DNA of 63,543 bases, filler included, from Stramenopiles sp. TOSAG23-6 (taxonomy: Eukaryota), in NCBI GenBank assembly GCA_900128565.1. It is 11 parts of 11 records of this genome, joined end to end, with 100 filler letters (N's around TTAATTAATTAA, not from the genome) between each part and the next. Parts side by side here need not be neighbours in the genome. Positions count along the whole stretch, not along the records: positions 47,811 to 54,511 come from LT636660.1; 10 more parts are not named here. One strand, written 5' to 3'. Both the position numbers and the translations under genes were made by a program. Shown in pieces: positions 3,869 to 60,600 of this stretch. Positions within the stretch are counted from its first letter, which is position 1, and every line of letters begins with the position of its first letter. The notes beneath the pieces are model-generated. The model was not told the DNA's origin. It saw only the letters and a list, made by a program, of their open reading frames with translations, and made no database searches.

Positions 3869-4347
3869 AGTATTCTTGAACTGCTTCTTTGAATTAAAAT
3901 GTGTGCTTATTCGTGACGTTCACTGTAAAAATTTAGACACCGTGGTTACTAATATTTGTGTATTGTGGTGGTGTGCTCTGTGCTGCTGCTCTGTGCGCTG
4001 CTGAATAAATACGTTCACTTCCGTTCACTTTTTCGCACTGGATGAAAAAGCGAGAATTGCGATTGCCGGATTGGTACAAAAATCCGTACCTAAACCAAAA
4101 AAAGAAAAATATATCGGTTAGAAAAAAAAACAAAAAGATTACTACCTACGATACACACTATAGTTGTTGTTGTTGTTGTTGTTGTTATTGTAGACCCTGA
4201 TTATCAAGGTGACAAATTATTTGCAGTCTTTTTCGATTTTATTGTTAGAATGAAAAAACATTGATTCATTGTACGATTAGCCCTTTGCGAGGATTCTGTA
4301 TCATAGTCAAATTAGTTAGTATATAGTATATAGTAAAGTAGTAGATA

Positions 4348-6314
4348 ATGGCAAAAGTAGTACAATCGAGAGAGACAAAAACAATACAGGCATTGGACAT
4401 TCGCGCTCGCGCATCAAGCGACCCTCTTGATTATACTCCAACATTTCTACGACATAGTTCTAAAAATAGAGATCAGAAAACCATAGTTGTATCAGATATT
4501 CATAATAGTAGTAATGGTAGTGAAATAATGGGCTTTTCGCCTGACGAAAAAGTAAACCTTCGTTCAAAAATAGCTCTTGGTATTGGTGAAGCAGCGCAAA
4601 CAATATGGGTACTTGTTGCTGGATTTTATCTTAATATTTTTCTTCTAGAAACATTGTGTATGTCAACGTCAACGGTTGGTATATTTCAACTCTGTGGGGG
4701 AATTTGGGACACAATTAATGATCCGTGCATAGGAATACTTAGTGATAAAACAAATACTCGTTTTGGTCGACGCCGGCCGTGGCTTCTAGGTGCTGCTATC
4801 CCTGCAGGGTTTTCCTATTTTTGTATTTGGATAGGACCAGATATGGGAGAAACAAGTTTATTTGCGTATTGTTTGACTTGTTATATGTTAATATCAGCAA
4901 GCATCACTTCGATTCAAGTTCAAATATCGTCTCGTACGTTTTCAAAATTGATTTTTGTACCTACAGTTTTTTTCATAGACAATTTTGTACCTAACAATTT
5001 TTTTTTTNCGAAAAAAAAAAAAAAATATCTCTTCACAAAATTTTCACTCCAGAGTTAACGCGTGATTATGATGAAAGAACTGAGCTTGCCATGTGGCGAT
5101 TAGGTATTGGCAATGTACTTGGATTAATTGCTGTGTTTTTACATTCACTTATAGTTCAAGCTTATCCTGAAAGTTCAAAATTGGATGGATTTCGAATTTC
5201 AGGTTTTGTGATGGGAACAGCAATTTCTTGTTTCGCACTTTTTGCATTTTTCAATATTAAGGAAAAATTTGATATATCAACAGAGTCAAAGGACGAAATA
5301 CCTTTTCTAGTTGGTTTAAGACATGTTTTTTCCAACTTTGCTTTTATTTGTGTTGAGGGTGTTTATTTATTTGGTCTAACCGCAGTGGTGATAGTGCAGA
5401 CAAATCTAGTATTATTCTGTAAATATATTTTAGAAGATGAAAGTCAGGTTTCTTATCTAATTTTACTTGTCCAAGGAATGGCAATGTTGTCTCTTCCCTT
5501 TTGGAATTGGTTCAGCCAAAAGTATAACAAAAAAATAATGTACCATGTTGGTTCACTAGTAGTTGCAATATCATTAGGAATGATGTTTTTAATTGATAAA
5601 GGGGATATAATATTTGGATATTTCATAGCCGGTGCACTTGGTTTTTGTCTGACTGTTGTTTATTTAGTACCGTACGCAATGTTACCAGATGTTATTGAAG
5701 AAGATGAATTGAGAACTGGTAAAAGACGAGAAGGCATATATTGTGGCTTTTTTGTTGTATTTATGAAACTATCAGTCACAGGATCTTTAGCTCTTTCAAA
5801 TTTTGTACTTGGTATTTCAGGTTATAAATCCCCAACTGCTTTGTGTAGCACAGTGTCAACTGATTTGAAAGCAACTGAGTTTTTAGAAACTCAAAAGGAT
5901 TCAGTTTTGTTGGCAATTAGATTAATGATAAGCCCTGTGGCTATTGTGTTTCTAATAGGGGCAAATATTTGTGTACGAAATTATCCAATTACTCGAGAAA
6001 GCCACGCGAAATCTGTAGAATTAGTAAAAGCTAGGAAACAACATGCAAGCCAGGAAAAAACAAATATAAAAACAATGCGTTCTTTAGGAGCCATTGACGG
6101 TTTGAATACATTGGGTGAAACAAAATGTAGTACTCAACATATTGGATTTGGGAAATTACCCGTGGCTGTAAATGATGTAGGTATACGAATTCATGGAGAT
6201 ATTGAATTTGGGAAATTACCCGTGGCTGTAAATGATGTAGGTATACGACTTCATGGAGATATTGAAGATCATGATGAAAGAGATAATGTTAATGATAATG
6301 ACATTGAAAATTAA
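4348..6314 (+). CDS. MFS glycoside-pentoside-hexuronide:cation symporter (MFSD2/MelB-like); exons 4348-4933 and 5044-6314
   Basis: WDTINDPCIG, TRFGRRRPW, MLPDVIEEDELRTGKRREG motifs; splicing restores SSLTPELTRDYDERT. Confidence 0.9.
4934..5043 (+). other. Family intron, inferred GT-TT
   Basis: GTACGTTTT start, TACCTAAC, end 21 nt from AAATAT; restores LTPELT. An in-frame AG at 5052 would delete the conserved LTPE. Confidence 0.7.
6145..6267 (+). repeat. 60-bp tandem duplication in the MFS C-terminal tail
   Basis: FGKLPVAVNDVGIR(I/L)HGDIE occurs twice. Confidence 0.9.
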
Positions 6315-6917: not shown

Positions 6918-9188
6918 ATACACCCATGACTAATTGTCTCACTCAGGTGAAAAGAGCCGTTGGTGTTTTATTACTACAACCGAGAAATAATCGAAGAAAT
7001 GGTGGACGAAACCCTAACCCTAATTCTGATGGGAAACTAAATATCACAAATGGTAGTGTTAAGCCTACTATACTATCAGATCCATCAGAAATATTCCGAG
7101 AAACAGGTAAAATTACTTCACTCAAAGAATCGTATGTTTTTTTTTGTAAACCCTAACCCTATTAGTATGAATTTCAAATTTTTAACTTTTTTTTTTTTTT
7201 TAAATTTTTTTTAATTTTTTTTTTTTAATTTTTTTTTGTACTATGAAAATTTGGTACCTAACATTTTTTTTTTTACTGAAAAAAAAAAAAAAAAAAATAT
7301 TCCTTCACAATACATCTTTGGTTTTATCAAGTCCACTGAAAGAACAAAAGATGTTTTTTTTCATTTTTCAGATATTCTTCCAAATTATAATCCTACAATC
7401 AATGATGATGACACTCTTACCCCTAACCCTAGGGTTAACCCTAACCCTAGCACAACGTCTACAAGTAGGAAAATGTTATCTAAAAGTCAAATTTTAGCCA
7501 TAGAACAAGGCAAAAAGGCAATGCATCCTGATGTATGTATCCCGGAAACACCGTTTCAAGTAGGATCAGAAGTTGAGTTTGAGCTTAAAAATTGTAACCC
7601 TAACCCTAACCATCATTCAGGACATTCAGAACGGCGTTCAAATCGAAAAGAGAGATTGACGGCTACCCGCATATGCTTATTGCCACGTGGCACTATTAGT
7701 TTTGATGAAATTGTTGCTGAGAATGTCATTTGTACGATCAAAAGAGCTTTGCTTCAAACAAATACATGTACGTTTTATTTTTTTTTTTTNAAATTTTTTT
7801 TTTGAATTTTTTTTCATACGAAATTTTGTACCTAACAAATTTAAATATTTTTTTTTGAAATATTTTTTCACAATACATCACGACATTCAAAAAAACAGAA
7901 TAATAAGGGAGGTCGTGGTCTTATTGGATGGATGTGTTCAAACGATTTTGAGCAAACGTTTTCGAAGAATCAATCGAATCTTTCTACTAACCCTAACCCT
8001 TCTAATAATTCCAAGGTTGATAACCCTAACCCTAATTCTAAGGTCGATAACCCTAACCCTAATTATAAGGTTGATAACCCTAACCCTAATTATAAGGTAG
8101 ATTCAACTTTAGTTTCAACATTGTCTACTATTTCTAATCATTCAATGGTAGATTCAAAAATGACGTCATCATCGAAACAACAAAACAAATGCATTAATCT
8201 CTATTTTACTGCACGAGATGTAAACAAAGTAAATGGTGAAAATGTTGCAAAAACGCTTAACCCAATGGATGAAATTAAATGTATGTATTATTTTTTTTCA
8301 ATTTTTTTTTTTACAAAAAAATCGAATTTTTTTTTTTTTTTTTTGGTAAAAAAATTTTGTACCTAACAATTTTTTTCAAATTTTTTTTTTTGAAATATTT
8401 TTCCAAAATTCAGGGACGCTCCGACTCATTCTTAAAAATGAAGGTGAGATTTGGCCAATTTTAAATTATATTTCTAATTTATATGAAAACAACACGAAAA
8501 ACAGTGAAACATTTATGTATTCGTATTTAGATCTAAAAAATAAAATTAGGAAAAAATTTGGTACAAAAATGTGGAATTCGTGTAAAACACGAATTCAAGA
8601 GTTTTTAGTATTATTATCCAAAGAATACGAAATGAAACATAAAACAAAAGAGGAAAATCCAAAAAATCCAAAAAATGAATTACATCAAAAAAGATTTTTA
8701 CATATGACTTCAAATGTATATTTTATTTTCAATTTCGAATTTATTTTTTTTTTGGTTTTTTGGTTTTTATAAAAATTTTGTACCTAACGATTTTTTTAAA
8801 TTTTTTTTTGAAATATTTTTCCAAAACAAATGCTATCACTAAAGCGACTATCGCCTCTGCATCTAGAAACGGTTACATACGTCACAAAAATCTTACCCCT
8901 ACAAATGACACGTGTCAAAAAAACACGGAACAAAGAAAAAAAAGTAGAATGTTTATTCCAACGGTACATAATGAGGGTATGCACTGGTTGTACGTATAAT
9001 TTTCATTATGATTTTTTTTTTTTTTTGAAATTTTTTTTTGGTATGAAATTGTGTACCTAACTTTTTTTTTTTTTTTGAAATATTGTAACAAAAACATACC
9101 AATTGTATTAAAAAAAGTTCCATTGACACCATTGTATATTCAATCAGCAATGGGGCTTCGAGTATGCATAGATATGGATCCACATTAA
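6918..9188 (+). CDS. Cold-shock-domain (CSDE1/UNR-like) protein, partial, multi-exon: 6918-7131, 7316-7767, 7879-8280, 8414-8715, 8832-8989, 9098-9188. Exons after 8413 may belong to another gene
   Basis: GKITSLKESFGFIKSTERTKDVFFHFSD, VGSEVEF, ATRICLLPRGTISFDE; all five junctions are phase-compatible. Confidence 0.7.
7132..7315 (+). other. Family intron GT-AT
   Basis: Restores the RNP1-like motif LKESFGFI; no AG is available before that motif. Confidence 0.85.
7768..7878 (+). other. Family intron GT-AT
   Basis: Phase 1; joins ORF 7236 to ORF 7932. Confidence 0.75.
8281..8413 (+). other. Family intron GT-AG
   Basis: Same internal motifs; ends TTCAG; phase 1 into ORF 8515 frame. Confidence 0.75.
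8716..8831 (+). other. Family intron GT-AT
   Basis: Phase 0; joins ORF 8515 to ORF 8760 frame. Confidence 0.7.
8990..9097 (+). other. Family intron GT-AT
   Basis: Phase 2 into a short terminal exon. Confidence 0.6.
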
Positions 9189-13207: not shown

Positions 13208-13438
13208 ATATATTGTGAAAAAAAAATAATTTAAAAATATCATGAATTTTTTTTTCATACGAAATTTTGTACCTAACAAAAAAAAAAAAAAAAAAAAAAT
13301 TCACATATTTTCAATTAAAATTCAAAATTTAAAATTTAAAATTAAAACCAATATATATACTATAGTATAGTATGTACTATAGTAAAATTTCAGAAGCACA
13401 AAAAAAAAAAAAAAAAAAATGAAGAAAAAAAAAAAAAA

Positions 13439-15795: not shown

Positions 15796-16362
15796 TCAAC
15801 TCATCTTTGGATGTATTGGATTATCGTTATATGAAGCATATTCTGCCCAACTACCATCATAGAGAGAGACTAACTTCATTTTGTCATTTGTTTTGTCATT
15901 TATTTTGTCATTTATTTTGTCATTTATTTTGTTAGGGTTAGGGTTACATTGCTCATTCACTTTTCTCTTTTTATTGTGATTAACCGACAAAGATTGAAAT
16001 TGAGTTGATTCAGACTGTATATAATTTACTGCCAAGGCAACAATACACGCTGTGATACCACTACCACATGTAACAACAATTGGTTTATTTACATCTACTT
16101 TTGTTTCGGAGAATATTTTAATCAATTCAGTTTTATTTTTGATAAAGACATGATCACTAGGGTTAGGGTTTGTTTCTTTTTCTTCAAAAAAATTTGTAGT
16201 TTTTGCTAATAATGATGTATATGGAATATTGAAACTTTTTGGTATATGCCCACTAGAAATATCATGTATTGTAGAGGAAGAGAAAATGTAGTTCAAATAT
16301 TTTGTTAGATACAAAAAACCGAAAAAACGAAAATATTGTGCTACTTTTTATGAAAAAAAAAT

Positions 16363-16393
<31 letters not shown>

Positions 16394-17132
16394 AGTCATT
16401 TGGAAAATGTACTTTTCGTGGTTCTGGTTCTGTTCCATTAAATCGACCTGGAGATCGAGCATCCACCACTTGTACGGTATTTGATGTAATATTATCAATC
16501 ATTTGTTTCATAGTAAACACAGTTTTTGAATCTTTCTTGAAAAATTGTTGAAATTGTGTTTCATCTAATGATTGTGTTTCATCTAATGATTGTGAGATAG
16601 TAGAGGTAGTAGTCGATTTCGATTTTTTTAATGAACCTTTTTCTAATGGAAACCCAGAGGAAATCCAGAAAGGTAACCCACCATTCAATACAGCAATACG
16701 GTTAGCAGGTATACCAAATAAGCGAAATGTATACCATACTCGAGGAGCGCTGAATATACCATGGGTGTCATATACCACAATTGTAGAGTTTGGTTTAATT
16801 CCTAGTGATCTGACATGGTTTATAAAGGAATCATTTGTAGGTAGCATATGTGGAAGAGTATCATTTTCAAGATCACTTATTGAATCAATATCAAAGAAGC
16901 GAGCTCCAGGAATGCGTCTTTCTTCAAAATGTAACTTTGCATCCAATTTGCTATTTGGCATGAACCAAGTGGCATCAAGAATAATGAGATCATTTGTTTT
17001 CTTTGTTATTTCCTTGTGTAACCACTCACATGAAACAAATCCAGATGTATTCATCGAACTAAAACGATTTAATGAAAATTGACGACAATGTTGATTACAA
17101 GACAAAACTATATTACGAACATACTGTTTCAT
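15796..17132 (-). CDS. 3-mercaptopyruvate sulfurtransferase/rhodanese; exons 17132-16413 and 16263-15796
   Basis: RIPGARFFDID, LPHMLP, DARSPGRF, CGSGITAC active site, LYDGSWAEY. Confidence 0.95.
16264..16412 (-). other. Family intron GT-AT containing a telomeric tract
   Basis: Restores EPEPRKDISSGHIP (family pattern EPEPRxGxRSGHIP) without an indel; no AG near the 3' end gives an in-phase stop-free join. Confidence 0.85.
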
Positions 17133-18784: not shown

Positions 18785-20376
18785 ATGACAGATTCATCCT
18801 TGTATTCAGTGTTTCAGAGCACATTTTGTTTTGTACGTCGTGGCCAATACATGGATGCTCTGGCAACATTCAAGAAAATATCCGCAATCTCGATATCTTC
18901 AGATTTGAGTGTTCCAACATATATAGCAGAGCTTCTTGTAGCAACAAACACTGTCATTATTTCTCTACAGGTACATTCTGACAACACTACATACGATAAC
19001 CGTAGTGAGAAAGTATTGTATCTTCTCCGACGTGTTCCTGGACTATTTGAGTTTACTAGACAACACCATGAGTTGATGCAAACACATGTCGAAACTTTAA
19101 TTGTTGACATTGTTTGCGGTATCACACAGCTCGGTTTACTCTACGACATTCCATTGACACATTCTATTATAGATATGTCACTTGAATGGTTTCATTCATT
19201 TCATTTATTGAGAATGAATCATACTCTGACAAAATCTAAATTACAGACACATGTCACTGAAGCAAAGTCATCATGAACGTTTTATTTATTTTTTTTTTTC
19301 CGGTAAAAAAAAAATCGAATTTATTTTTTATAGTAAATTTTGTACCTAACAATTTTTTTTTTATAGAAAATTTTGAAATATTTTCCAAAATACATTGTTG
19401 TCGAATTATAATTCTTCTCATGGCACAAACTCCAATCTAGATTACTTGATACAAAAAATACAACATCTGTGTATAAGAAAAACATTATCATGTTTGTTTC
19501 AATGATACATTTCAATTTTTTTTTTCGTACGAAATTCTGTACCTAACAAAAAAAATTTCGATTTTTTCTACAATATTTTTTCACAATTCATTGAACCTAT
19601 ATATTCGATTTTTGTTACTCATCATGACATCTAGTTTAAAAAGGAAACGTTTTGATTTCGTGCTTTTGACGAGTACGAAGTTGTGTGCGGCACTGCGAAA
19701 CCCTAACCCTAAAGATTGTAACAACACTACTAAAAATGAACAAAATGAAACAAATAAACATTACAAAAAAAATTTTCAACACGAGGAAATTTGTTATGAT
19801 ATTGATGAGATTATAAGTATATCTTTACTAAAGTCTTCCTATCTACAGACAATTTCATTCATTCATTTTGAAAAACTCCAAGAAGCAATTTGTTGCATTG
19901 ATCGTGTATGTTTTTTTTCAATTTTTTTTCAATTTTTTTTCAATTTCGAATTTTTTTTTTTTTTGGTTTTTTGGTTTTCGTACGAAATTTCGTACCTAAG
20001 AAATTTTACAAAAAAAATATTTTTTCACAATACATGCAATTCAAGAATTTCAAGAATTTCAACAAACCCTAACCCTAAGTGGAACGATTCCAAATGAAAA
20101 TATAACAAATAATTCAAACAAAACAAACAATTCAATATATATAACACAAGAATATCGTACCTATGGTGCTTCTTTATTTTTATCTGGTTGTATACATTTT
20201 TCTTTATCTTTTGACAAAAACCCTAACCCTAATGAAAACAAACATAAAAACCCTAACCCTACCACTGAAACAAAAAAAGCAAAACAAAAACATTGTACAT
20301 TAGCTCTAGACCGGTTCCAGCGTTGTGCACGAAATCGCTTATATTTACCTATCATTTCAACATTTATGTCTGGACT
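18785..20376 (+). CDS. TPR-like helical protein, 5' part; exons 18785-19274, 19396-19491, 19592-19905, 20036-20376
   Basis: Continuous open frame after removing three family introns; a fourth starts at 20377. Confidence 0.65.
19275..19395 (+). other. Family intron GA-AT
   Basis: Starts GAACGTTTT (family GTACGTTTT); removal eliminates a TGA and keeps frame. Confidence 0.65.
19492..19591 (+). other. Family intron GT-AT
   Basis: Phase 1 into ORF 19591. Confidence 0.7.
19906..20035 (+). other. Family intron GT-AT
   Basis: Phase 0 into a 113-codon open exon. Confidence 0.75.
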
Positions 20377-28066: not shown

Positions 28067-29408
28067 ATGGGCGGATCACAAAGTATAGAGAATATCACAA
28101 TATTTCAGGATGAGGATACGATTTCTGCGTTACATTTCTTGAAAAGTGAAACGAAATTGAAGAACCTTTGGGGAAAACTAGACTTAGACTGCTGCGGATA
28201 TATAACCCTTGACTCATTAATGAATGAATTACCCCATATTCCAGGATTCGTCACAAACCCTAACCCTAGTGGGAAAAAAAAAGTCACAAACAAGTCAGAA
28301 AATAGTAAAGCTAGCCCAGTACTGCGAGCCTTCAAAGCTACATGTTATGGTAGTGGAAGGATTGGTGACAACTTTGTGGAGCCTACAGAATTTCACTTAT
28401 TACTGCGTAATATTCTATTTTTCGATCGTTTATGGTCTGTTTTTGATAGCATAGATTCAAGTAACAACGGTGCAATCGAAATAGATGAATTTAAACAAGG
28501 TTTGAAACGTCTAAAAATTCAAATTGATGATGAAACAACCAAGAAAGTTTTTACTGAAATGGACGGTCAGAAGGATGATGGCCACGTTTTGTTTAATGAA
28601 TTTTGTAAGTCTATTGCGCAGATTTTAACTCCTAAAGATAGCATTGTTTCACTGCATGAGAAACATTTTGATAATCCTCCTCAAATGCCACCGCATAAAT
28701 TAGCTAAAAAAAAGAGGAGAAATAAAGCAGGTTTGTGTTTCACCGATGCTACACAGGAAGATTTCGAATATCACGAAATGGCGACTACGGGCTTGTCCAG
28801 TATGAAAGAATTTGACGCACTTGAAAACAAATTACGACTCGAATTGAACAATTCAAATTCTTTACAATTATGTATGTTTTATTTTTTTGAAAATTTGATT
28901 TTGATTTTTTTTTTCGTACGAAATGTTGTACCTAACAAATTGTTTTATATTTTTTTTTGAAATATTTTTCCAAAATACAGTATGGAAATCATTTGATTCC
29001 AATGGCGATGGAAAAATATCGTTGAAAGAAGTTGACTCGTTGATATCAGAGAAATATCCATTGCTTAATAACAAACCTGCTTTAATACGGGCATATAAAA
29101 ACACAATACACGAAAATAAATTTGGTGATGATTGTATCGTTTTCCCAAATGGTCTAAAAACGCTTATTGGAAACATATTTTCTTTTAATAAACTATTGAA
29201 AGTGTTTAGTGATATTAATGTCAGTGAAGGTCGACTCCTTGACTTTGGAGAGTTTTGCAGAGGTATCTCAAGAGTAGGAATTTGTCTACGTATTAAAACG
29301 GCTCAAAATGAATTCGAATTGATGGACGAAAATGACATTGGTAAAATTTCTTTTGATGATTTTTGTGTGTGGATTGCGCAGCAGAAGTTGAGTAGTTCAT
29401 TAAAATGA
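28067..29408 (+). CDS. Myristoylated multi-EF-hand (flagellar Ca-binding-like) protein; exons 28067-28871 and 28981-29408
   Basis: MGGSQS start; DSSNNGAIEIDEF, DSNGDGKISLKE, DENDIGKISFDDF. Confidence 0.85.
28872..28980 (+). other. Family intron GT-AG
   Basis: Full consensus but ending TACAG; gives LQLLWKSFD; anchors the family register. Confidence 0.85.
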
Positions 29409-29605: not shown

Positions 29606-31060
29606 TCAGATTTGATGATGTTGTTTAAGTGACATATTTATACCTTTAATGGCTAAAGAAATGCTATCCATTGGAACACTTTGCTTACTAGGTCGACTCT
29701 CAATTACTTTTTTACTAGATGTTTTATTCCTTGAAAAAGAATCAATCAAATCTTGCTTCGGGGATTCTCCTGGACTATCCGATTGTTTCATTTGAATGTT
29801 TTCATACAGTTTAGCTATTTCAAGAGCTTTTTCAATTTTTTTTCGAGCAATTTCTTTTTCAGCCAGTAGTGCATCAATCTGTTTTTGTGCTTCCAATGCA
29901 GTTTCCTTCCATTCGTTTTTTTGTTTCTTTTCCTTTGATTGAGCTAACCAAGCTTCTTCACAAGATTCTACTGCTTCCTCAACTTGTGTTGATGCCTCCT
30001 CAAGTGAAGTATTACGCCATTTCATATGTTCTTCTGCAAAGTTGGACATTTCAGTGGACTCATGAGACTCTCTTTGAAACATCAATTTTTGCTGCTTCAT
30101 ATTCTTATCATGTATCATGAGCTGATTTTCAAATTCACGATTTACTTGAGCAGAATACATGTGTAAATGTTCATCCCTTAATAAATGAACCTTTTCAATC
30201 GCCTCTCTGCATCGATTTTCCCATGACTTACACTCATATTGTATAACAAATTTTAAAGCTTTTGCTTCCTCTTTCTCTTTGTCTTTCAACTCATCGACCA
30301 ATAAGGAATATTTATATTCTTGTTGTACATTATTTACCCGAATTAAATTTGAATGATCTAAGGCAATTTGGTTTTTATCTTCATGATGCATTTCTAACTT
30401 TTCTTGGCAAAACTTTAGTTCTTCTTTTAGATTGGATACTTCAGATTCAAAACGCAGACGGTCTGTCTCTGCTTCTTCTGAGATTCGCCGTGCACGTGCC
30501 GCCATTGTCATTTCTTCATTTTTTATTTTGATTCTTGCAAGCGCAGTCGCTCGAAGTTGAGCCATCGTATGTGCCTGCTCTGCTTCTGCGATTTGATGTC
30601 TAAAAGAATTATTTTGGATTGCTTCTTTTGGAAATTGAACATTCGCAACAGAATGCTTAGTATTAAACAAATGTTTTTGTTTCTTATTATTAGTCGCACT
30701 TCTTTTTATTGCGCGTATTTTGGATGCATGAGCTTTTTCTTTATTTAAATTGCCCAATCCAATATGACCCAACCAAGAATCAACATCAACAACTTCGTCC
30801 TTATCATTGACACTTGACATGTTTACATTTCCTTTAGGTATGAAATCTGGTACGGATGTAGTCTTTGAGTCTTTGTTTACTTGCTGTAGTACTGATTTTG
30901 ATATTTTTTGTGTTGGAATATTTATGTTAGGAGATAATATCTTTACGTTTGTCTTTTGTCCTGAAATTATTTTCTTTGTTGTTATCGTAGTTTGACGATT
31001 GATCTGATTGTTTATTACTGGGGATGTTTTTGGAGGTGGTGGTGGTGGTAGTAAAGTATC
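29606..31060 (-). CDS. Pro-rich/coiled-coil protein terminal exon
   Basis: Long ORF following family intron 31061-31161. Confidence 0.65.
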   Translation of the reverse strand, partial: DTLLPPPPPPKTSPVINNQINRQTTITTKKIISGQKTNVKILSPNINIPTQKISKSVLQQVNKDSKTTSVPDFIPKGNVNMSSVNDKDEVVDVDSWLGHIGLGNLNKEKAHASKIRAIKRSATNNKKQKHLFNTKHSVANVQFPKEAIQNNSFRHQIAEAEQAHTMAQLRATALARIKIKNEEMTMAARARRISEEAETDRLRFESEVSNLKEELKFCQEKLEMHHEDKNQIALDHSNLIRVNNVQQEYKYSLLVDELKDKEKEEAKALKFVIQYECKSWENRCREAIEKVHLLRDEHLHMYSAQVNREFENQLMIHDKNMKQQKLMFQRESHESTEMSNFAEEHMKWRNTSLEEASTQVEEAVESCEEAWLAQSKEKKQKNEWKETALEAQKQIDALLAEKEIARKKIEKALEIAKLYENIQMKQSDSPGESPKQDLIDSFSRNKTSSKKVIESRPSKQSVPMDSISLAIKGINMSLKQHHQI

Positions 31061-32517: not shown

Positions 32518-33945
32518 TCAAACTGCTCTTTCTTTATAATTATGAAAATCACCAGCAATTAAATGAGGAATTATCATTGAAAGTGTCCATTTACCATTTG
32601 ATTTCGTAGCAAATATTGGTTCATTTGTAAATATTGAGTTGTTTACCTGTTTTTTTCCTTTAGGTACGAAATTTGGTACGGATTTCAACAGATTTTTTAC
32701 ACTATTTTTTGGATCTTTCATTTTGTCTTTTTGATTAGGGTTAGGGTTATCAATACACATATTTTGATTATAATTGTCGAGCAGAAATGTACAAAGAGCA
32801 AAACTTGAAAGTGATTTTGGTTTGATTCGCAAAATGTCTAAAAATATCATCAAAAAAAATATGTCAAATTTGAAATTCGTTAGGTACGAAAATGGAAACT
32901 CAAAAAAAAAAAAAAAAATCTTTTAGGTACGAAATTCCGTATAAAAAAAAGAAATAAAAACTGAAATGAATGATGAAAACATACACGAAATCTCAGAGTT
33001 ACGGTGATTCATAGCATATGATAATAATTGATAAAACGCATTTGATGACACAACAGAAAAATTGTTTTCATCTTTTGGTATTTCAAACCCTAACCCTACA
33101 TAATTTGTATTATTAGGTTTATTATTAGGGTTAGGGTTTCCGTCCATTTTTTTTTTTGAGTCTATTTTGAAATCATTATTAATTATTAAACATTTTTTAC
33201 TACAATTCAACGCTTCAATACACATGTTGTGTTTTAAAAGTATAGAAACGGATTCACTTAATTGTCCAGAATATCCCAATAAATAAGCATATGCGATTTG
33301 CTGTTTCTTTATTAATTTTATTTCATATTTTTTTTTAGGGTTAGGGTTTTTTTTTTCTATTTTTTCTTTTTTTTTCGATTTATTTTGAAAATAATTGTGT
33401 ATAGAATACCCATTATATGTATAAGGTAAGCAATGTAAAGCACGGATCGATAAATCACGTAAAATATTCCATTTATAACATCTATATTGTAACCCTAACC
33501 CTAAAGGCATATCTGCTGAATAGTGTAGGAAATCCGTACCAAATTTCATACCTAACGAATTTGAGGAGTATTTGGCAATAATTGTATTACACGTAAATTC
33601 AATGAATGGCAATAAAACTTCTGGATATAAGCAATAATATAATCGGCAAAGTACTTCAAATATATACGTGTATCTATCATAATCATATTTTTCATTTTTT
33701 TCATTTTTTTGTTGGTTTAACCCTAACCCTACCTTCACATATTGTTTACCGGGTACCGTACGTATATATTTCGTATGAATATTTTTCATTTGATTTGTAT
33801 GAGGAAATCCATTTAATAATAACTGATTTGATGATGGGATTTTCATGTTTTTTTTAACTCTAGGTATAGAATCTGGTACACATTTATTAGGGTTAGGGTT
33901 GAGATAGAAAGATAAATTAGGCATATCAATACAATTTTCCATATC
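32518..33945 (-). CDS. Unknown helical protein, 3' part; exons 33945-32985 and 32843-32518
   Basis: Frames joined by family intron 32844-32984 (GT-AT, phase 1). Confidence 0.55.
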
Positions 33946-47652: not shown

Positions 47653-47889
47653 ATGTATTTTGGAAAAATATTTGAAAAAAAAACGTTAGGTACAAAATTT
47701 CGTATGAAAANNNNNNNNNNNNNNNNNNNNNNNNNNNNNNNNNNNNNNNNNNNNTTAATTAATTAANNNNNNNNNNNNNNNNNNNNNNNNNNNNNNNNNN
47801 NNNNNNNNNNAAAAAAATTAAATTCGAAATTTGTTAGGTACAAAATTTCGTACGAAAAAAAAAATTCGAAATTCATAATGAAAACGTAC

Positions 47890-48572: not shown

Positions 48573-48965
48573 GTTTCACCACGGTGATACACAGTAGTTC
48601 AATGCACCTCGTGGAGAAAAAATGTTTTTAGTCTTCGTTTCTGAAGCTGTAAAGTATCTTTTTTTATGATGCGGATGTAACGGTTGTACCTATATCGCGA
48701 AGATATTTACTAATAATAATACTACGTAGTAAAATTCTATACGAATATTTAGCTACAGAATTTCGTACCTAAAAAAATACTATGTATTTTTGACAGCTGA
48801 TGAAAAATAATATCAGTCATCACTCATCATCGCGCGCGGAAGTGAAGTGTGTTTCATTCTTCTATTAACAGTTTATGTAAACAGCTCTTACATCGGATTG
48901 TGTGCAGGGTAGCTTAGGTAATATCACCCACGATTCGTTTCTGTAGTTTTTATATTTGAATAAAG

Positions 48966-50402: not shown

Positions 50403-50530
50403 TATGTCAATAGTATTTGAAATTAGGGTTAGGGTTCTTAAAAAAATAAACTTTTTCTTTGACGACTAACGTTGTTTCTCTTTCAAGCTATTATTTTTAT
50501 GACAATCAAATTTATTTTACTATAACTCTA

Positions 50531-51151
50531 TTACTGTTGTTTACAATCTGAAGGGGAATCACTTTGATTCATCTTTTGATTTCGTCTACTTCTTAGNTTC
50601 GCTTCTACCTCTCTAACTGCAGGGACTTTCTCATANGAGATTTTAAGAGTCTGATTACTATGTTCACAAGATACAAGTCTAGGATCGAGTTTTAGCTCTA
50701 ATCTCTTCAAAGCTGGAATGTCAAATCGCTTGAAATACTTTTTATTTGTAGTTCGAAGTACTATTTGTTGTTTTTCCTCATCGACAGAAAGCTGGAATAT
50801 GTTCTTTGGGTACGGCAAGTTTCGAATACGCCAAATGAAGGCACTTGAACTATCCTGGGGAATAAACACTGGGTTTTTCGCACGACTAACTTTCATTGCA
50901 CCCCCTGCAATCATTGATGAAGCTGGCTTCGTTGGTGCATCACCAATTTCAAATTCCCAGCGAGTCCAGCCTCCCAACGTAGTTTTAGAACGCCAACGGC
51001 GTACCAGTAATTCATCTGTTTTGGCATCATATTCTTCGGCACATTCTGAGGCTGTTATACCATTTTTCGCAGGCCAACTCGTTATAACACGCAANCGACC
51101 ACCTGCTGTTGCTACAGTCGACGTACCTGGTGTTTTACGAATAGCATACAT
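50531..51151 (-). CDS. DPCD: DPCD protein
   Basis: EEYD...LLVRRWR, WEFEIG, NPVF..D...FIWRIRNLPYP, LRTTNKKYFKRF. Confidence 0.9.
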   Translation of the reverse strand: MYAIRKTPGTSTVATAGGXLRVITSWPAKNGITASECAEEYDAKTDELLVRRWRSKTTLGGWTRWEFEIGDAPTKPASSMIAGGAMKVSRAKNPVFIPQDSSSAFIWRIRNLPYPKNIFQLSVDEEKQQIVLRTTNKKYFKRFDIPALKRLELKLDPRLVSCEHSNQTLKIXYEKVPAVREVEAXLRSRRNQKMNQSDSPSDCKQQ

Positions 51152-51373
51152 CTATTGATAATGTAGAAATACTAATACAGCAATAAATAATTGAAAATTG
51201 TGTGAGGATTTTGAGATTCGGAAATTTTGGGGGAGGTGGTCGGTGTCACAAACCTGTTAACTTCGATCGATTCAGCAGAAAACGAGACTCAAGAAAAACA
51301 AGGCCTCTTCTCTCGCTTCGTTGTGCGTGTTGTTGTTGTTTCCACTGATCAATATTGCAGTATAACTAGAACC

Positions 51374-52215
51374 ATGGTCGCTCACACTCTCGCCACTGGC
51401 TTAAAAAAAGGGCATGTATCTACTAAACGCCCTGCAGCAAAATCTCTCCGTGCTTCTCGCACTGCTGGACGTTGCGCTAGCCGCGTAAAGCTTGTCAGAG
51501 ATCTCATCACTGAAGTTGCTGGACTTACTCCACTCGAGAAGCGTCTTATTGATATCCTCAAGGTAAGTTATATATCTAGAAATTGTATATATTGAGCGTG
51601 TTTTCTTGTGTTATGTGTACAAAAGAGTATCTGTGATACTTTTGTTGCAATNAATTCTGCAATAACAGTTGCTATCTGTGTGTGCAATTGTTTATAGTTC
51701 TTTTAGTTTCTGTCTTACAGCATATATTTTCTATACGAAATTTTGGGTTGAGATATGAATTGGGGAATACCATTCTTATTTCTAAGCCAAGCATGTATTA
51801 CATATCGTAGATGTAGCATATTTGAGATAGAAAAGTTGCTTTAGCATATGAATTATTCAGTTATTGTACCCACGTGTTTGACTGTCCATGTTCATGACGA
51901 AGTCACCTTAGTATAATATGATTGTTTATTCAAGAGCTATAGCTATGTGTCACAAACTAAGAATTTCTACCACATTGCAAATTAATACCAAGTGTTTCCG
52001 CAAGTATTATCATTTTGTATTAGAATCATATACTCAAATACTAACTTTTAAAACATTTTTGAATATTCTTACTTAAATAGATTGGTCTCGGTAACCCTGA
52101 TAAACGTGTCTACAAGCTCGCTAAGCGCCGTCTTGGTACACACAAGCGCGCTCTCCTCAAACGCGANAAGGTCAAAACCCTTTACTCACAGATGAAAGCA
52201 CGCGGACAGAACTAA
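51374..52215 (+). CDS. RPL36: 60S ribosomal protein L36 (eL36); exons 51374-51562 and 52081-52215
   Basis: GLKKGH, EVAGLTPLEKR, KRRLGTHKRA; canonical AG|GTAAGT...TACTAAC...TAG intron. Confidence 0.95.
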
Positions 52216-52571
52216 GCACGTTAACCGCATATTTATATGCATATGAGAAGGATATATGTTTTGAAGTTTTTATAGGAATGTTTCTATATTTGTTGGACTG
52301 TGAAATCTAGAGATTTTGTATTTAGTACGAAATTTTGTATGTAACACGAAATCGACTTTATATAACATGACAATATTTACTTGATATTTCTTTATTAAGG
52401 CTTTACATCTTTGCTTTTGGTTCAGCAATAAATCTTTCAAATGATCAGCTAAAGGCTTTAGACTTTTATATATTTTTTTTCGTAGAAAATTTTATACCAA
52501 AAAAAAATTCATTTCAACTTTAAATTTTTTTATTTTTATCATCAANGCAAAGTAAATTAAATAGTACTTAC

Positions 52572-53447
52572 TTAATAGCAAGCAGCTGGATCTGTCCTAC
52601 TTCGAACTGCACGCAATGAATGTAACAATCTCTGAACCTCTGCTGATCTACTTTTCTTCTTTTTTCTATATTCTTGATACCATAATGATATTGGTTCATA
52701 TGATGACGTACTGCTTTGCGATGAGTTCGAACGCCTCGAGCCAATATTTTTTCTCGAATCAAGGAATCCACCATGTTTCCCATTAAATTTACTCAATCCN
52801 CTTAATGGCAATTTAGATAGCTGATGAGATAAAGTGTGAGNACCACTACTTTCTTTGGGAACGTCTTCTAGCGCTAACATTGCCATTCCATTTCCGACCA
52901 TGGCTTCGTCTTTTTGCAGAGACTCAGTACTATTTTTCAATTGAAACGCACTACTTTGAATACTTCTATTACGCGGCGATCGTTTAGTACTTCTTGGTGG
53001 AAGCATAGCCGCATCGTACATTTCAGTGCGTAAGGTTTCTTGAATTTGCTTTCGTATATTTTTCCTTTTTGAACCATCTGGATAATAAAGAGGTTGTATA
53101 TTGCTTTCGTGAGTTAGCTGAGACTGTATACCAGTGTGTTTCATCACAGGGACCGAAATTGGTTCCACAAAGAGTTTAGTNTGTAGTGACTGTTGATCCT
53201 TATTTGCTACCATCGTAGGATATTGTGAAGCATTTAAGGTCATAATATCCAAATATGGAGCTAACCCATTTCGTCTCTCATATTGGGACCTAAATGAAAA
53301 TGATCTTCTAGAAGCTGTGGCACGCTGTGGCACTGTCGAATCGAAATCAAAAGTACCTACATCAGATGAACGGATAACACTAAATTGTGAATCATTTTGT
53401 TGCATNTCATCGTGTGCCTGNACGGCATCATCAAGAGAATCACCCAT
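52572..53447 (-). CDS. Hypothetical low-complexity protein
   Basis: 291-aa ORF, no recognised domain. Confidence 0.55.
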   Translation of the reverse strand: MGDSLDDAXQAHDXMQQNDSQFSVIRSSDVGTFDFDSTVPQRATASRRSFSFRSQYERRNGLAPYLDIMTLNASQYPTMVANKDQQSLXTKLFVEPISVPVMKHTGIQSQLTHESNIQPLYYPDGSKRKNIRKQIQETLRTEMYDAAMLPPRSTKRSPRNRSIQSSAFQLKNSTESLQKDEAMVGNGMAMLALEDVPKESSGXHTLSHQLSKLPLXGLSKFNGKHGGFLDSRKNIGSRRSNSSQSSTSSYEPISLWYQEYRKKKKSRSAEVQRLLHSLRAVRSRTDPAACY

Positions 53448-53657
53448 CTTTTGAGAGTTGCACTTGAACTTGCTTCAAAAAAGAGGATGTATTAAAAACA
53501 TGAAACCGTAATGACCACTCGCACTACCTTCCCGAATATTTTTGGTACGGAATTTCGTACCTAACGGAATCTGTTCGAAGCGTGTGGATACTCTACCACG
53601 GGATAAAGTTTCAAAATAGAACTTTTTTACCTTCCCGTAAGAAATTGAATTTTAATA

Positions 53658-54458
53658 ATGCCTAGAAGCTTTAAGCGATGGCTACAAGCGTTTGATACTA
53701 ATTTAGGTAACTTGTATGGAGTAATGTTTGAAACATCACGGGTAAAGGTTCGTGATCTAGGTTTGTTCCCCATAGTTCCGAAGTCTACTAGTGTCATTGT
53801 TAGAAGAAACATCTTCCCAGTTCGTGTTGGGGATATCGTTGCACTTCTTCCCGGTACAAATATGCTCAACAATAGTAATAGATCAATATCTCAGAACCAG
53901 GAACAAACTATTTTTAGAAAAGTACAAGCCCTTCCGGGAGATGAAATGGATTCTGCTGATGGTATAACTCCTAGTTTTTTTCTTCCTGACTGTGAATATT
54001 GGTGTGAAGTAGAACGACCCATTGAAGATAATAATGACGTTCTAGATTCGAGTGATTTTGGACCAGTAATATTACCGATATCAGCCAGCAATGGCATTTC
54101 CGAAACACACGCATGGTTAAACCGATATGATATGGATACAACACCATACTTTATCTATATATGTTTTATTTTTTTTTCAATTTCGAATTTATTTTTCATA
54201 CGAAATTTCGTACCTAACAAATTTTTTTAGATTTTTTTTGAAATATTTTTCCAAAATACATGGTCGGGCGATATTCCGAGTTGAAGAGGCGGATGAGGAT
54301 CCAATAATAGGGAAACCAATAATTGCCTCTAATAAAGCAGAATTGGGTGAAACTAGTGGACTTCGTCTTTTACAAAATAATCCAAAGTCAATGCAGGAGG
54401 ACAAGGCTTATGCTTCTCTAGTGAAGCATTTTTGGATCGATTATATATATAGAAACAT
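53658..54458 (+). CDS. S26 signal peptidase/IMP-like fold protein; exons 53658-54158 and 54262-54458
   Basis: GDIVAL, RKVQALPGD, DSSDFGPV, spliced IYGRAIFR. Confidence 0.6.
54159..54261 (+). other. Family intron AT-AT (slides to AT-AC)
   Basis: Starts ATATGTTTT; phase 0 gives YGRAIFR. Confidence 0.7.
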
Positions 54459-54462
54459 GTAT

Positions 54463-54511
<49 letters not shown>

Positions 54512-54611: not shown

Positions 54612-57600
54612 GAAATTTTGTACCTAACAAATTTTAGTTTTTTTTTTTGAAATATTTTTCCAAAAAGCATACACCGTGCTAAACAAATAGGAGTGACTAA
54701 AAGTTTAGAAATAGGACCAGGTAACGTTCTTTCTGGATTAATGAGAGCTGAAGGAATTAAAAGTGTATCGTGTAATGGTGATCATCTTTGTGATTTGGCT
54801 AGTTTAAATGAAATAGTAAAGTTTATGAAATGATTAATAAAAAAAATGTTTTATTCTTTTATTCTACGTAAATTATTTAATCTTCATCATCTTATCATAA
54901 TTCTTCATCGTCTTCGTATTCACTTCCCGTATACTCTTCATAAGAATCATCATCTTGATTATTTTTACCATCCGTTAGAATAGGAAAGTCTGAATTTTGA
55001 ATTTGCTTTTCATTTTCATCATATACAAATTGTTTTGGGCCACTTTCAAAAATCAAACTTTTTCCGAAAATATAACTGAATTTTTCGAGTCGTAGCCATC
55101 GCCCGTATTGATCATTCCATTTTTCACGATTCGATTTCATCAATCCTCGCAATTTTGTTTTTCTTCGAAGATGGTGTTTTTTATACAATGTATTCAATTT
55201 TGTATTTATCCCTTTTTTCGAAATATATAAAGGCAATAATGAAGCCAAAAAGATAAAACTTGCAATCATAAAAGTTGTTAAGATTGTACCATTTGTATCA
55301 TTTTGAGTAACTCTATAATAACTATGTCTTACTTGCAAGCCTTTGCCATACGTTTCAACTCGTCCATTGAGTGGATCTCTTCGTAGAACATTGACATAAT
55401 AACTGACATTATTCTTGACGTAAATATCTTCATACGCCCAACCTGATACAGTCCAATTACCACCACCATGACCACCTTCACTACCAGTACGATGCGCACT
55501 AGGTTCATTCATATTCAAACTATTTGTATTCCAAAGTCTTTCAGAAGCAGCAGCTACAGTCTCATATACACGAGAACTTGCCATGATATTTGATGGTTCG
55601 AAGTTACCGATGCTCATCAAATATTTCAATCTTCTATTTCCTTCATTTTCTGATTTATTATCTGTACTATCCGTATTATCTGTATCCGTGACATTTCTAT
55701 CTTTAAATGGCGTACTTTCATGACGATTTGTAGCTTGTATTGAAATACCATTTCTTTCAACACCACATCCTGTCCACATCACACAGTCAGTAGGTGGAAC
55801 ATTTACACCACAAGAACCTCTCTCACGAATATTTGCGTTACAATCACTTCCATCTTCATGTATCAAAGTATGACCAAAACTATCCATTTCCGATTTGCAA
55901 TCTGGCCGCTCAACATAATTTAATAAGTATTGCTCTCGCTCTACATTTGTAGTTTTCCAAAATACTCTAATCATAGGCAAATTTCTACTAGGAATTTCCA
56001 CTGCACAAAGCGAGTCGACTAATACTGTTGGTACACATTTACCTTGGTGAGAAGTCTTGTTTTTATTTGTATTCAATGATTCTTTTGGTAATTCTGAACC
56101 ATCTCGTGAACTATCTAATAATCCCCATAACCATCCCGGTGATTTAGGAAGAACCCAATCAAAATTTACTATAGAATCCTTCTTTGTATCTGGTTGAAAA
56201 TTACAGCAATGTAATAAACATTTCGATTCGTTGTCGTCAAAGTCGCTACACTTCATTGTACTATCTATGATTGCATCAGTCATGTTGACATAAAGAGGAT
56301 GTGCATTTGGTACATGAAGAGATTGGGCATAGGTATAATCTTGTACACCTATAGGATTGGCATCACTTAATGTACTTGCATCATTTGCCTTGAGTTCGAC
56401 ACTTACTGAAAATGAACTCGATGATAATCCATACACGGATATTAACCATCCCCCATGGGTTACTGGTAGAGATATAGTTTGTATTGAAGAAACGTAGTTA
56501 GATTGACTTACAATAGGTGAATGACTTACAGGTCGGTATTTAGAACTGATTTGAAGTTTGAGTCCTCCGAGATCTGTTATTGATGCTTTTGTCAATGTAA
56601 GAACTATTTCACATGCAGAATCACATTGTGCTTGAAGTATTGAACTCTGACTTCCTAAAATATTTATTTCAAGAATAATATCATCAGAATCAGTTAACTC
56701 TGTTTCAAATTTTATCTGCGTAGATGTAATTCCAAATCCTGCAACATTTGCAATTTTTTCTTTCAAACTTATTAAAGTAGCATTATCTTTCATTTTCGAT
56801 ACTATGTTATCTCCTGTAGCTTTTAAACGAATGATCACATCCTTTATTCCATGAAACCCCCAACAATTTTCACCAAAATTTAAAGCAGGATATTTAACAG
56901 AAGAATGTGATAAAGCTTCAGCAGCCGCAATATCCGCAGCTTCTTTTGCCTTTTCTATTGCAGCATTTACATCCACTGTACCAAGACCATCATTTTGAGC
57001 CTTTACCTTTGCATCAAAGAGTGTCTTTGATCTCGCAGTGTTTTCAGCTGAATACCTTTCAATATCAACCAAAAAGTCATCAGGTCCTTGTGGTAAATAT
57101 CCAGTATTCTTATCTGGAAATGGCCACGTCATTTTAGATCGAGTACCCTTTACCGTTGTGTTGTTCCCAGTATGTGATGCCGGAGGTGTAGTTTCGAATA
57201 ATTGCCACATTTTTTGTCCTTTCCAAAGAATTTGTGGTTTCACAAAAATTTCAGATAAACCAGAACAAGGTTCCAGTTTAAATGTAATAGTAGCACCACT
57301 TGGGTTGTGTAGTGCTTTTATATTCTCTGCGTCTAAAACATAGTGATAATGTTTATATCCACCAACATCAACGGTATCTCTAATTTCATCCCAATAACCA
57401 GAAAGAGGAATACATTTAATACCTTTCTCTACAGTAACTTTCTCTTCTTTTAAGTCTTTATCAAACACTCGTTTTTCATATGACAACATAGAGTTTGGGT
57501 TTTTATACAATTTTGCTGTACTAAGAGAGTTTATCCCTGAAATTTGTAAATCTTTTCCATCAAGTAATCCCAGAGGATCTTCACAGGCTTTATAACGATA

Positions 57601-60600
57601 AGGGAATAAATGAGGGTCTTTCAGACCAATATCCATCCCAGTATCGGAAAGATCTGTGGGTTGTTGAACAATTAATATATCTGATGGATTTTGAGAGTAT
57701 GCTACATTAGTTGCAATAACTATTCCCACTTGAGCATTGGGTAGAGTTATGAAAAAGTTATACACAAAGAAGACATTAAATGCAAATATTACTACACCAC
57801 AACTATTGCGAAAGCAGGACATCTTTTTGAAAATCACAAGGTTATGATTCTGCAATTATTTGATTTGTTTATTGGTTATTATTGAAGAATTGACATTGTT
57901 AAATGAATTTTACCTATAATTACCGGCAGTAGTAGTGTGTAAGCAAAAATAAATACTGTCAAATACTCTCAAGTTCGACGGTTTCGTACTATAGGTACCG
58001 GGTATCGGTATTTCAATTAAGAATATTTATTGTTAAATGTCAACAAACAATGAATGAAAGATGAAAGTAAAAGTGTCAATACATTAATTCACAGATCTGA
58101 TAGTAGAATGAAGACCAAAAATTTATAAAATAAAGACTCCAATTTACTTTTTGTCTTTCTTTTTCTTCTTTTTCTTCTTCTTCTTCGTATCAAGATTAGC
58201 CATTAAATCTTCTATAGACGCATCTTTTCCTTTACTCTTTGCGGCTTTCGCAGCAAGTTTCTTCTCAGCTTGTCTATCTGCGATCTCTTTCTTTTTTTTC
58301 GCTTCCTCTCTCAAGCGTTTCACTTCCTCGCGCTTTGCTTTAGCATCTGAAGCTTTGTCTGCGTTAAACGCACGGTCTCCTATTCCCGATTTACCACCAC
58401 CGCCAGCTGCTTCAGCAGCAGCTTTGGCTTGATTCCGTGCCCTAGCAGTAGCTGATTTTTGTCCATTTCCTCCTCCCATAGTATTCTTGAACTGCTTCTT
58501 TGAATTAAAATGTGTGCTTATTCGTGACGTTCACTGTAAAAATTTAGACACCGTGGTTACTAATATTTGTGTATTGTGGTGGTGTGCTCTGTGCTGCTGC
58601 TCTGTGCGCTGCTGAATAAATACGTTCACTTCCGTTCACTTTTTCGCACTGGATGAAAAAGCGAGAATTGCGATTGCCGGATTGGTACAAAAATCCGTAC
58701 CTAAACCAAAAAAAGAAAAATATATCGGTTAGAAAAAAAAACAAAAAGATTACTACCTACGATACACACTATAGTTGTTGTTGTTGTTGTTGTTGTTATT
58801 GTAGACCCTGATTATCAAGGTGACAAATTATTTGCAGTCTTTTTCGATTTTATTGTTAGAATGAAAAAACATTGATTCATTGTACGATTAGCCCTTTGCG
58901 AGGATTCTGTATCATAGTCAAATTAGTTAGTATATAGTATATAGTAAAGTAGTAGATAATGGCAAAAGTAGTACAATCGAGAGAGACAAAAACAATACAG
59001 GCATTGGACATTCGCGCTCGCGCATCAAGCGACCCTCTTGATTATACTCCAACATTTCTACGACATAGTTCTAAAAATAGAGATCAGAAAACCATAGTTG
59101 TATCAGATATTCATAATAGTAGTAATGGTAGTGAAATAATGGGCTTTTCGCCTGACGAAAAAGTAAACCTTCGTTCAAAAATAGCTCTTGGTATTGGTGA
59201 AGCAGCGCAAACAATATGGGTACTTGTTGCTGGATTTTATCTTAATATTTTTCTTCTAGAAACATTGTGTATGTCAACGTCAACGGTTGGTATATTTCAA
59301 CTCTGTGGGGGAATTTGGGACACAATTAATGATCCGTGCATAGGAATACTTAGTGATAAAACAAATACTCGTTTTGGTCGACGCCGGCCGTGGCTTCTAG
59401 GTGCTGCTATCCCTGCAGGGTTTTCCTATTTTTGTATTTGGATAGGACCAGATATGGGAGAAACAAGTTTATTTGCGTATTGTTTGACTTGTTATATGTT
59501 AATATCAGCAAGCATCACTTCGATTCAAGTTCAAATATCGTCTCGTACGTTTTCAAAATTGATTTTTGTACCTACAGTTTTTTTCATAGACAATTTTGTA
59601 CCTAACAATTTTTTTTTTNCGAAAAAAAAAAAAAAATATCTCTTCACAAAATTTTCACTCCAGAGTTAACGCGTGATTATGATGAAAGAACTGAGCTTGC
59701 CATGTGGCGATTAGGTATTGGCAATGTACTTGGATTAATTGCTGTGTTTTTACATTCACTTATAGTTCAAGCTTATCCTGAAAGTTCAAAATTGGATGGA
59801 TTTCGAATTTCAGGTTTTGTGATGGGAACAGCAATTTCTTGTTTCGCACTTTTTGCATTTTTCAATATTAAGGAAAAATTTGATATATCAACAGAGTCAA
59901 AGGACGAAATACCTTTTCTAGTTGGTTTAAGACATGTTTTTTCCAACTTTGCTTTTATTTGTGTTGAGGGTGTTTATTTATTTGGTCTAACCGCAGTGGT
60001 GATAGTGCAGACAAATCTAGTATTATTCTGTAAATATATTTTAGAAGATGAAAGTCAGGTTTCTTATCTAATTTTACTTGTCCAAGGAATGGCAATGTTG
60101 TCTCTTCCCTTTTGGAATTGGTTCAGCCAAAAGTATAACAAAAAAATAATGTACCATGTTGGTTCACTAGTAGTTGCAATATCATTAGGAATGATGTTTT
60201 TAATTGATAAAGGGGATATAATATTTGGATATTTCATAGCCGGTGCACTTGGTTTTTGTCTGACTGTTGTTTATTTAGTACCGTACGCAATGTTACCAGA
60301 TGTTATTGAAGAAGATGAATTGAGAACTGGTAAAAGACGAGAAGGCATATATTGTGGCTTTTTTGTTGTATTTATGAAACTATCAGTCACAGGATCTTTA
60401 GCTCTTTCAAATTTTGTACTTGGTATTTCAGGTTATAAATCCCCAACTGCTTTGTGTAGCACAGTGTCAACTGATTTGAAAGCAACTGAGTTTTTAGAAA
60501 CTCAAAAGGATTCAGTTTTGTTGGCAATTAGATTAATGATAAGCCCTGTGGCTATTGTGTTTCTAATAGGGGCAAATATTTGTGTACGAAATTATCCAAT

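Follow-up and report, generated by a model that had tools for sequence, protein, structure and literature searches.

The palindromic core that runs into a branch-like CTAAC in the genome of Stramenopiles sp. TOSAG23-6 (GCA_900128565.1), probably a MAST-3 stramenopile, is the middle of a larger repeated unit of the form GTAYGTTTT ... core-CTAAC ... TTTTCCAAAATACAT. On balance, we favour the interpretation that the motif provides the branch site in a family of spliceosomal introns that are self-contained and introner-like. These would be removed by the major (U2) spliceosome with an acceptor set by a conserved 3' box, and the palindrome would act at the level of DNA. Read from the genome, these introns seem to end mostly in AT and not in the near-universal AG: 20 of the 23 complete family introns in the window apparently have no AG end, compared with a single canonical intron examined. 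The palindrome itself is the less surprising part, with no conserved RNA structure and with copies outside introns that suggest a DNA-level role. All positions refer to the whole stretch of DNA analysed (the window; 63,543 nucleotides, filler included), which is a chain of contigs of about 6.8 kb joined by N linkers.

Sequence and conservation of the core motif

In the copy flagged by a preliminary description of this DNA, positions 54198-54218 read ATACGAAATTTCGTACCTAAC, with an A as the first base of the core; the consensus by majority over 31 cores reads nTACGAAATTTTGTACCTAAC. The family branch box TACCTAAC was counted 35 times in the window vs 0.96 expected by chance, and the 16-mer gave 32 matches with three mismatches or fewer, vs 0.36 expected. 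TACTAAC is not enriched (6 in the window vs 6.1 expected). A few motif copies are counted twice, since the contig at positions 1-6400 recurs at 54612-61011 with 6400 of 6400 bases identical.

The preliminary description had presented the consensus as a perfect 16-bp palindrome, exact at 19980-19995, that runs into CTAAC. The exact palindrome does occur there, within a GT...AT family intron (19906..20035, + strand, delimited by sequence and frame), but it is the only perfect one among the 30 copies in the window (two of 31 when the copy of L001, a separate marine contig, is included) and it is not the consensus; moreover, the bases that follow it are CTAAG. The core had also been described as better conserved than the flanking T-runs. 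This holds for its 3' half, since GTAC-CTAA is conserved at 94-100% across 33 copies, but not for the 5' arm, which at 43-87% does no better than the upstream T-run (61-100%). The putative branch A and the T two bases upstream of it are invariant (33/33 copies), CTAA is present in 30 of the 31 aligned cores, and the full box TACCTAAC in 25 of them. The TACTAAC noted at 52039 was found again, within the GT-AG intron of the RPL36 gene. As a whole, the earlier observation is partly confirmed, and its interpretation, considered in the following sections, is partly supported.

A family of intron-like units with mostly AT ends

The family units are T-rich and 86-192 bases long, start with GTAYGTTTT and finish in ...GAAATATTTTTCCAAAATACAT. 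We detected 23 complete copies in the window and one in L001, in host genes that are unrelated to each other, and all 23 copies in the window (23/23) are sense to the host gene. Their 3' ends are AT in 17 copies, AG in three, TT in two and TG in one. In the 21 copies that were tabulated, the ends are AT (16), AG (2), TT (2) and TG (1), and the starts are GT (19), GA (1) and AT (1); the two complete copies left out of this table, at 31418 and 32984, were resolved separately. The former (31418-31278) has an AT end that is in frame, and for the latter an AG at 32838 fits and the family AT is out of frame, its end probably being AG. When the tabulated introns were cut at the family ends, the longest upstream and downstream open frames were joined in 19 of 21 cases; in the remaining two, the frame extends as far as the next intron or the stop codon of the gene. 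Since the 3' ends were picked by their match to the family consensus, the choice is biased towards AT. That the motif belongs to introns mostly lacking an AG acceptor, which we see as the central result, is not stated in the preliminary description.

A single cold-shock-domain gene carries five family introns (7132..9097, + strand; from sequence and frame), of which those at 7132-7315, 7768-7878, 8716-8831 and 8990-9097 end in AT and that at 8281-8413 in AG. The AG-ending members keep the same register as the AT-ending ones, as in the intron of an EF-hand gene (28872..28980, + strand; from sequence and frame). The intron at 19275 starts with GA (GAACGT) and yet the frame is restored, which points to either a real GA donor or a sequence error. 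Besides, the core or its 3' half is tandemly doubled at 14650-14841, 32842-32984, 33946-34060 (minus strand) and 4934-5043, which gives these introns two candidate branch points.

In the introns that restore the frame, 34-54 nt separate the putative branch A from the 3' end. An AG is found between branch and end, 10-28 nt downstream of this A, in eight of the 21 tabulated copies. In four of these, one of them the flagged copy, this AG is not in frame and must consequently be skipped; in the other four (4/21) it is in frame. Many more copies have an in-frame AG within 60 nt downstream of the end, while five (8716, 8990, 16412, 19492 and 19906) have none up to 60 nt past it. For the copy at 23831, an AG end 3 nt later is possible.

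The flagged copy and junctions supported by homologues

The flagged intron (54159..54261, + strand; defined by frame and by comparison with the protein P0121) is 103 nt long and in phase 0, starts with ATATGTTTT, its first bases being ATATGT, and ends in TACAT. Its removal fuses open frames of 170 and 101 codons. Since the upstream exon also ends in AT, the intron can be slid by 2 nt, so that it is readable as AT...AC as well as AT...AT. It includes the imperfect 16-bp palindromic core (54198..54213, + strand; 5/6 pairs possible, -3.3 kcal/mol when folded as RNA) and the CTAAC branch core (54214..54218, + strand), whose A at 54217, the putative branch point, is 44 nt from the 3' end. Further downstream, a TAG lies behind a T-run (54228..54230, + strand) at a distance of 13 nt from the putative branch A; not being in frame, it has to be skipped. 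The conserved 3' box GAAATATTTTTCCAAAATACAT with the AT acceptor, delimited by column counts and alignment, follows at 54240..54261 (+ strand). The upstream exon of the host gene (53658..54158, + strand) has no Pfam match and contains what we take to be signal-peptidase-like motifs. Its downstream exon (54262..54458, + strand) is followed by a further family donor, which starts at 54459 and runs into a gap. A search of solved structures with the exon of this gene gave one uninformative match (E = 0.036), and no spliced protein of the gene was found among transcript-assembly proteins. Parts of 47820-54500 are matched by 11 RNA runs with shares of 0.22 or less, to which we gave no weight as evidence of splicing.

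Three family junctions are backed by homologues at the level of the predicted proteins. The first is that of the flagged copy, across which P0121, the only relative found (40% identity), aligns without gaps. In this alignment the AT end (101 bits) is barely set apart from ends placed 3 or 6 bases before it, which reach 99.0, while the closest in-frame AG falls to 85.1. The junction best fixed by homology is that of the GT...AT intron in a 3-mercaptopyruvate sulfurtransferase gene (16264..16412, minus strand), where cutting at the AT leaves five residues between two conserved motifs. The same spacing occurs in all 110 scorable homologues (of 120 fetched), which fixes the AT junction at this position. 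P0001, a public model of the gene with 93% identity, uses an AG and stops before the second rhodanese domain; public gene models of this organism would break at family introns. The third junction is in an MFS_2 transporter gene (4934..5043, + strand), probably GT...TT according to Pfam register and frame: positions 120 and 122 of the Pfam MFS_2 profile leave one residue at the junction, implying the TT end. Among transcript-assembly proteins, the sulfurtransferase search returned only the public gene model, and no spliced counterpart of the cold-shock exon was found among the longer ones.

The separate marine contig L001 has the same intron, which is 104 nt long, GT...AT and in frame. On its minus strand, at about 2390-2040, a GT-AG intron lies downstream of the family intron and has an apparent 5' arm of the core inside, possibly being a decayed member.

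Copies of the core outside introns

A weight matrix of the core (14 bits or more) gave 13 strand hits in the window, at 10 loci outside the curated introns, vs 0.13 expected under a local order-3 Markov null. Three of these loci lie between divergent genes, one between convergent gene ends and three in long open frames, and three are T-flanked remnants. The copies between divergent genes are free-standing 24-bp dyads at 53541..53564 (TTTGGTAC-N8-GTACCTAA, about 100 bp from each inferred start), at 48749..48772 (upstream of a cystathionine-beta-synthase-like gene) and at 4070..4093 (upstream of the MFS gene, with its duplicate at 58681). They have CTAA-like halves on both sides and form 6-7 of the 8 outer pairs, vs a mean of 4.7 in introns. 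The dyad is absent from at least three further regions between divergent genes in the window. The copy between convergent ends (52325..52345, + strand) follows RPL36. Those in open frames are found antisense to the gene at 33536..33556 (+ strand) and sense within exons at 32659..32679 and 30833..30853 (both minus strand); these three exonic copies, all in one contig, may be local duplicates. In one of the remnants (13257..13277, + strand), the core is inverted relative to a minus-strand, family-type 3' box near 13205, so that in 13205-13300 this box has no sense CTAAC before it.

The C that follows the putative branch A has been retained in 29 of the 33 copies located in introns vs 5 of 10 copies outside (P = 0.02), as expected if branch function constrains only the copies in introns. 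Of the interpretations first offered for the motif, that of a DNA-binding site gains support from the ten copies outside the curated introns, some of them exonic and in either orientation. Their number above chance points to a site at the DNA level, and the palindrome is most likely a dyad of this kind, either a putative protein-binding site or the relic of a mobile element.

A motif CACTTCC/GGAAGTG was seen at 4016, 48838 and 27647, i.e., in two of the promoters with a dyad and in one other upstream region. Exons throughout the window contain scattered telomere-like CCCTAA repeats in either orientation (AACCCTAACCCT 20 and 10 times), e.g., at 7430-7450, 8000-8090, 33140 and 33500, which are translated into runs of NPNP and LGLG. 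The dyad copies in exons fall within genes that have many such repeats, and TACCTAAC resembles CCCTAAC.

Proposed mechanism of spread and splicing

In the scenario that we favour, a mobile element would have spread through coding sequence, preferably into sites preceded by AT, and each copy would have brought a donor, a branch box and a 3' box of its own. Splicing by the major spliceosome would start from the GTAYGT donor and branch at the A of CTAAC, and the acceptor would be located via the conserved 3' box 34-54 nt downstream and not by scanning for the first AG. With the acceptor set in this way, AT, AG, TT and TG could all be accepted. The out-of-frame AGs between branch and end speak against scanning, and the spread in the distance from branch to end also argues against a strict ruler. 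The 3' half of the dyad would double as branch box and be kept, and the 5' half would decay. CTAAC is an ordinary branch core, and the proposal that it serves as the branch site receives positional support from its place 34-54 bases before the 3' end of the introns that restore the frame.

The predicted U2 dependence is consistent with several features of the family, namely the restored frames, the match with homologues, the sense orientation, the GT donor with a G at +5 (17/21) and a T at +6 (21/21), and the CTRAY core. On the other hand, the canonical AG acceptor is found in only 3 of the 23 complete copies. The canonical GT-AG intron of RPL36 (51563..52080, + strand; from sequence), used as the case for comparison, has its TACTAAC 36 nt before the end.

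Regarding the putative mobility, the exon ends in AT before the intron in 12 of 21 copies, vs a background of 10%. Exon end and intron end are the same in 11/21, but when the exon does not end in AT the copy is exact in only one of nine cases, and a 2-bp target duplication is hence borne out only in part and not in its strict form; position -2 does covary (P = 0.0075). The terminal inverted repeat is limited to GTAT...ATAC plus T/A runs, and the GTAC variant is unmatched at the 3' end. No autonomous partner, transposase or empty allele was seen in the window and at one metagenome locus, and a search of viral contigs with two patterns gave no matches. Matches in prokaryote genomes (13) did not exceed the number expected by chance (about 17). 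Helitrons have a 5' TC end and a 3' CTRR end just after a palindrome. A Helitron was rejected as a candidate, as the element starts with GTAYGT and its CTAA lies 34-54 nt inside its end.

Alternative explanations

The preliminary description had proposed an RNA hairpin that presents the branch site, and in this form the palindrome would fold into a stem ending just before CTAAC, stack on the helix between snRNA and branch site and expose the branch A. The stem does end exactly where CTAAC starts, a G-U pair survives the most frequent change (C to T at position 12) as well as two further ones, and folding of the flagged copy, and of some others, gives the hairpin as centroid structure. Several of these changes being compatible with G-U, there may be weak pairing; C-to-T decay at two CpG sites would, however, yield the same changes. 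The check for covariation speaks against the hairpin: among 24 distinct cores there is no double, compensatory change across the six pairs, and 72.2% of the cells are paired vs 72.6% in shuffles. The arms also decay unequally, with departures from the ideal in 42 of 155 cells of the 5' arm vs 8 of 155 of the 3' arm (P = 1.3e-7; the G-Y wobble pair is left out of this count), i.e., about five times faster in the 5' arm. Furthermore, all six pairs have zero pairing probability in 9 of 21 introns, RNAalifold gave no consensus structure for 19 introns in an alignment that is gapped in the loop, and the flagged intron, with a stem of only -3.3 kcal/mol, folds no better than shuffles (z = -0.14). 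With no compensatory change and unequal arm decay, we regard the hairpin as very unlikely. A variant U2/U12 snRNA, the other RNA-level proposal, is not needed to account for the extra C, which is the last base of the GTAC arm and is followed by an ordinary CTAAC. What does stand is that the family branch box TACCTAAC, found in 25 of 31 cores and different from the U12 consensus TCCTTAAC, pairs better with the U12 motif (-4.2 kcal/mol, vs -1.3 for a U2 motif), the order being reversed for the RPL36 intron. Blastocystis is a relative of MAST-3. It is reported to possess the full set of four minor snRNAs, along with minor introns in the hundreds (PMC10639083), and GT-AT and AT-AT appear among the known rare non-canonical U12 termini in Table 2 of PMC1557818. 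One could imagine that the family is handled by a hybrid spliceosome, or by a minor (U12) one that has diverged, with snRNAs that have co-evolved to pair with RTAYGTTTT and TACCTAAC; this would suit the very strict branch box, its better pairing with the U12 motif, and the AT...AT (or, slid by 2 nt, AT...AC) ends of the flagged copy. In the account of PMC8199999, though, the U12 donor is (A/G)UAUCCUUU and the U12 branch box lies 10-20 nt from the 3' end. None of the 21 family donors has the CC at +5/+6 of (A/G)TATCCTTT, the distance from branch to end is 34-54 nt, and a U-rich tract lies downstream of the branch box where U12 introns are without a pyrimidine tract. The spacing is much like the 36 nt of the canonical RPL36 intron, a single case. 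We therefore hold a U12 or hybrid reading to be unlikely. A search with Rfam at gathering thresholds gave no matches in the window and L001.

As for the unusual acceptors, it could be argued that the introns truly end at an ordinary AG nearby, and that the AT ends arise from the way the consensus is read or from assembly errors in T-runs. Many copies have in-frame AG alternatives, the assembly contains Ns and long homopolymers, and the public model P0001 takes an AG; nevertheless, the five copies that lack any in-frame AG as far as 60 nt beyond the end, the truncation of the sulfurtransferase before its second domain in P0001, the homologues that fix the AT junction and the same end in L001 leave little room for this explanation, to which we give scant credence. 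Even slighter are the odds that removal of the inserts takes place in DNA or, guided by proteins, without a spliceosome, with the dyad as the site of the enzyme and CTAAC as merely branch-like. Ends without AG, the short inverted repeat GTAT...ATAC formed by them and the occurrence of the dyad outside introns would all agree with it. However, DNA excision would not need the sense orientation found in 23/23 complete copies, the donor is a normal spliceosomal GTAYGT, AG-ending members share the register of the family, an independent DNA assembly also contains the inserts, and the 5' variants GTAT and GTAC are not matched at the 3' end. Finally, the 24-bp sequence might lead two lives, as a protein-bound dyad in divergent promoters and exons and, in one orientation, as the branch site of mobile introns that a changed or hybrid spliceosome would process with no need for an AG; such a spliceosome may combine U2-like reading of the donor with U12-like pairing at the branch. 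We consider this combination improbable; were it true, the element would have built its splice signal from a regulatory site of the host.

Comparison with known intron types

Non-canonical U2-type introns with ends in YAY triplets have been reported in fritillariid tunicates, where they are abundant and 3' AT is the most frequent end, at 44% in F. pellucida and 34% in Fritillaria borealis (PMC13326754, PMC11282704). According to the same reports, these introns resemble the family described here in that YAY or AT also precedes the donor, GT-AG introns coexist with them and a transposon-like origin is proposed. They differ in that their donors are also non-canonical (AG/AC, AG/AT), whereas the family has a normal GTAYGT, and in that their splicing was demonstrated by RNA, with a duplicated U2AF as the proposed cause, whereas the family is described here from genomic DNA. 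Unlike what is described for fritillariids, we are dealing with one stereotyped family with a strict branch box and a 3' box, in a stramenopile host. If confirmed by RNA, this would amount to an independent loss of the AG rule in a stramenopile that retains normal donors, and the family could then serve as a second natural system, beside fritillariid tunicates, for understanding how 3' splice sites are chosen and why AG is near-universal.

Introners have been described in fungi, dinoflagellates, a stramenopile and Micromonas (PMC11282704, PMC12130899). As in those reports, many short introns of much the same sequence recur in a marine protist, in genes unrelated to each other and in a preferred exon context; the short inverted repeat at the ends may be a further parallel. 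The large survey among them allows AG and AC as 3' splice sites (PMC12130899), unlike the family here, which has mostly AT. A search of 12 of the 14 supplements of that survey for the labels stramenopile, TOSAG, Bigyra and Opalozoa had no hits. A literature search, mostly of freely accessible papers, returned no paper on non-canonical or GT-AT introns in MAST-3.

With minor (U12-type) introns, as they are portrayed in the sources consulted above, the family shares a strict branch box with CC and the tolerance of GT-AT and AT-AT ends, but its donor is not RTATCCTTT, its box is short of one T of TCCTTAAC, and its branch lies 34-54 nt from the end with a U-rich tract. Yeast-type U2 introns have a strict TACTAAC branch box. 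The family is like these and the RPL36 intron in its GTAYGT donor, its CTAAC core and a distance of about 35-45 nt from branch to end; it is unlike yeast-type introns in its mostly AT acceptor, in the skipping of an earlier AG and in having AC and not TA before CTAAC. The 3' end of the RPL36 intron (52039-52080, TTTTTGAATATT) resembles the family 3' box by eye, a weak likeness for which alignment gave no register.

Other observations in the window

Most contigs break within a copy of a family intron, and the family probably fragments the assembly. The exon that follows a cut family intron at 54670-54830, and at 60-220, resembles what is presumably the end of a malonyl-CoA-ACP transacylase. At 27360-27640, a contig starts with an inverted repeat. 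Long retrotransposon-like frames with a Pfam RVT_2 match and many ambiguous bases occupy 34137-40952. A SPO22/ZIP4-like meiosis gene (weak Pfam match) at 21244-25661 on the minus strand contains three family introns and gives a hint of sex in this lineage.
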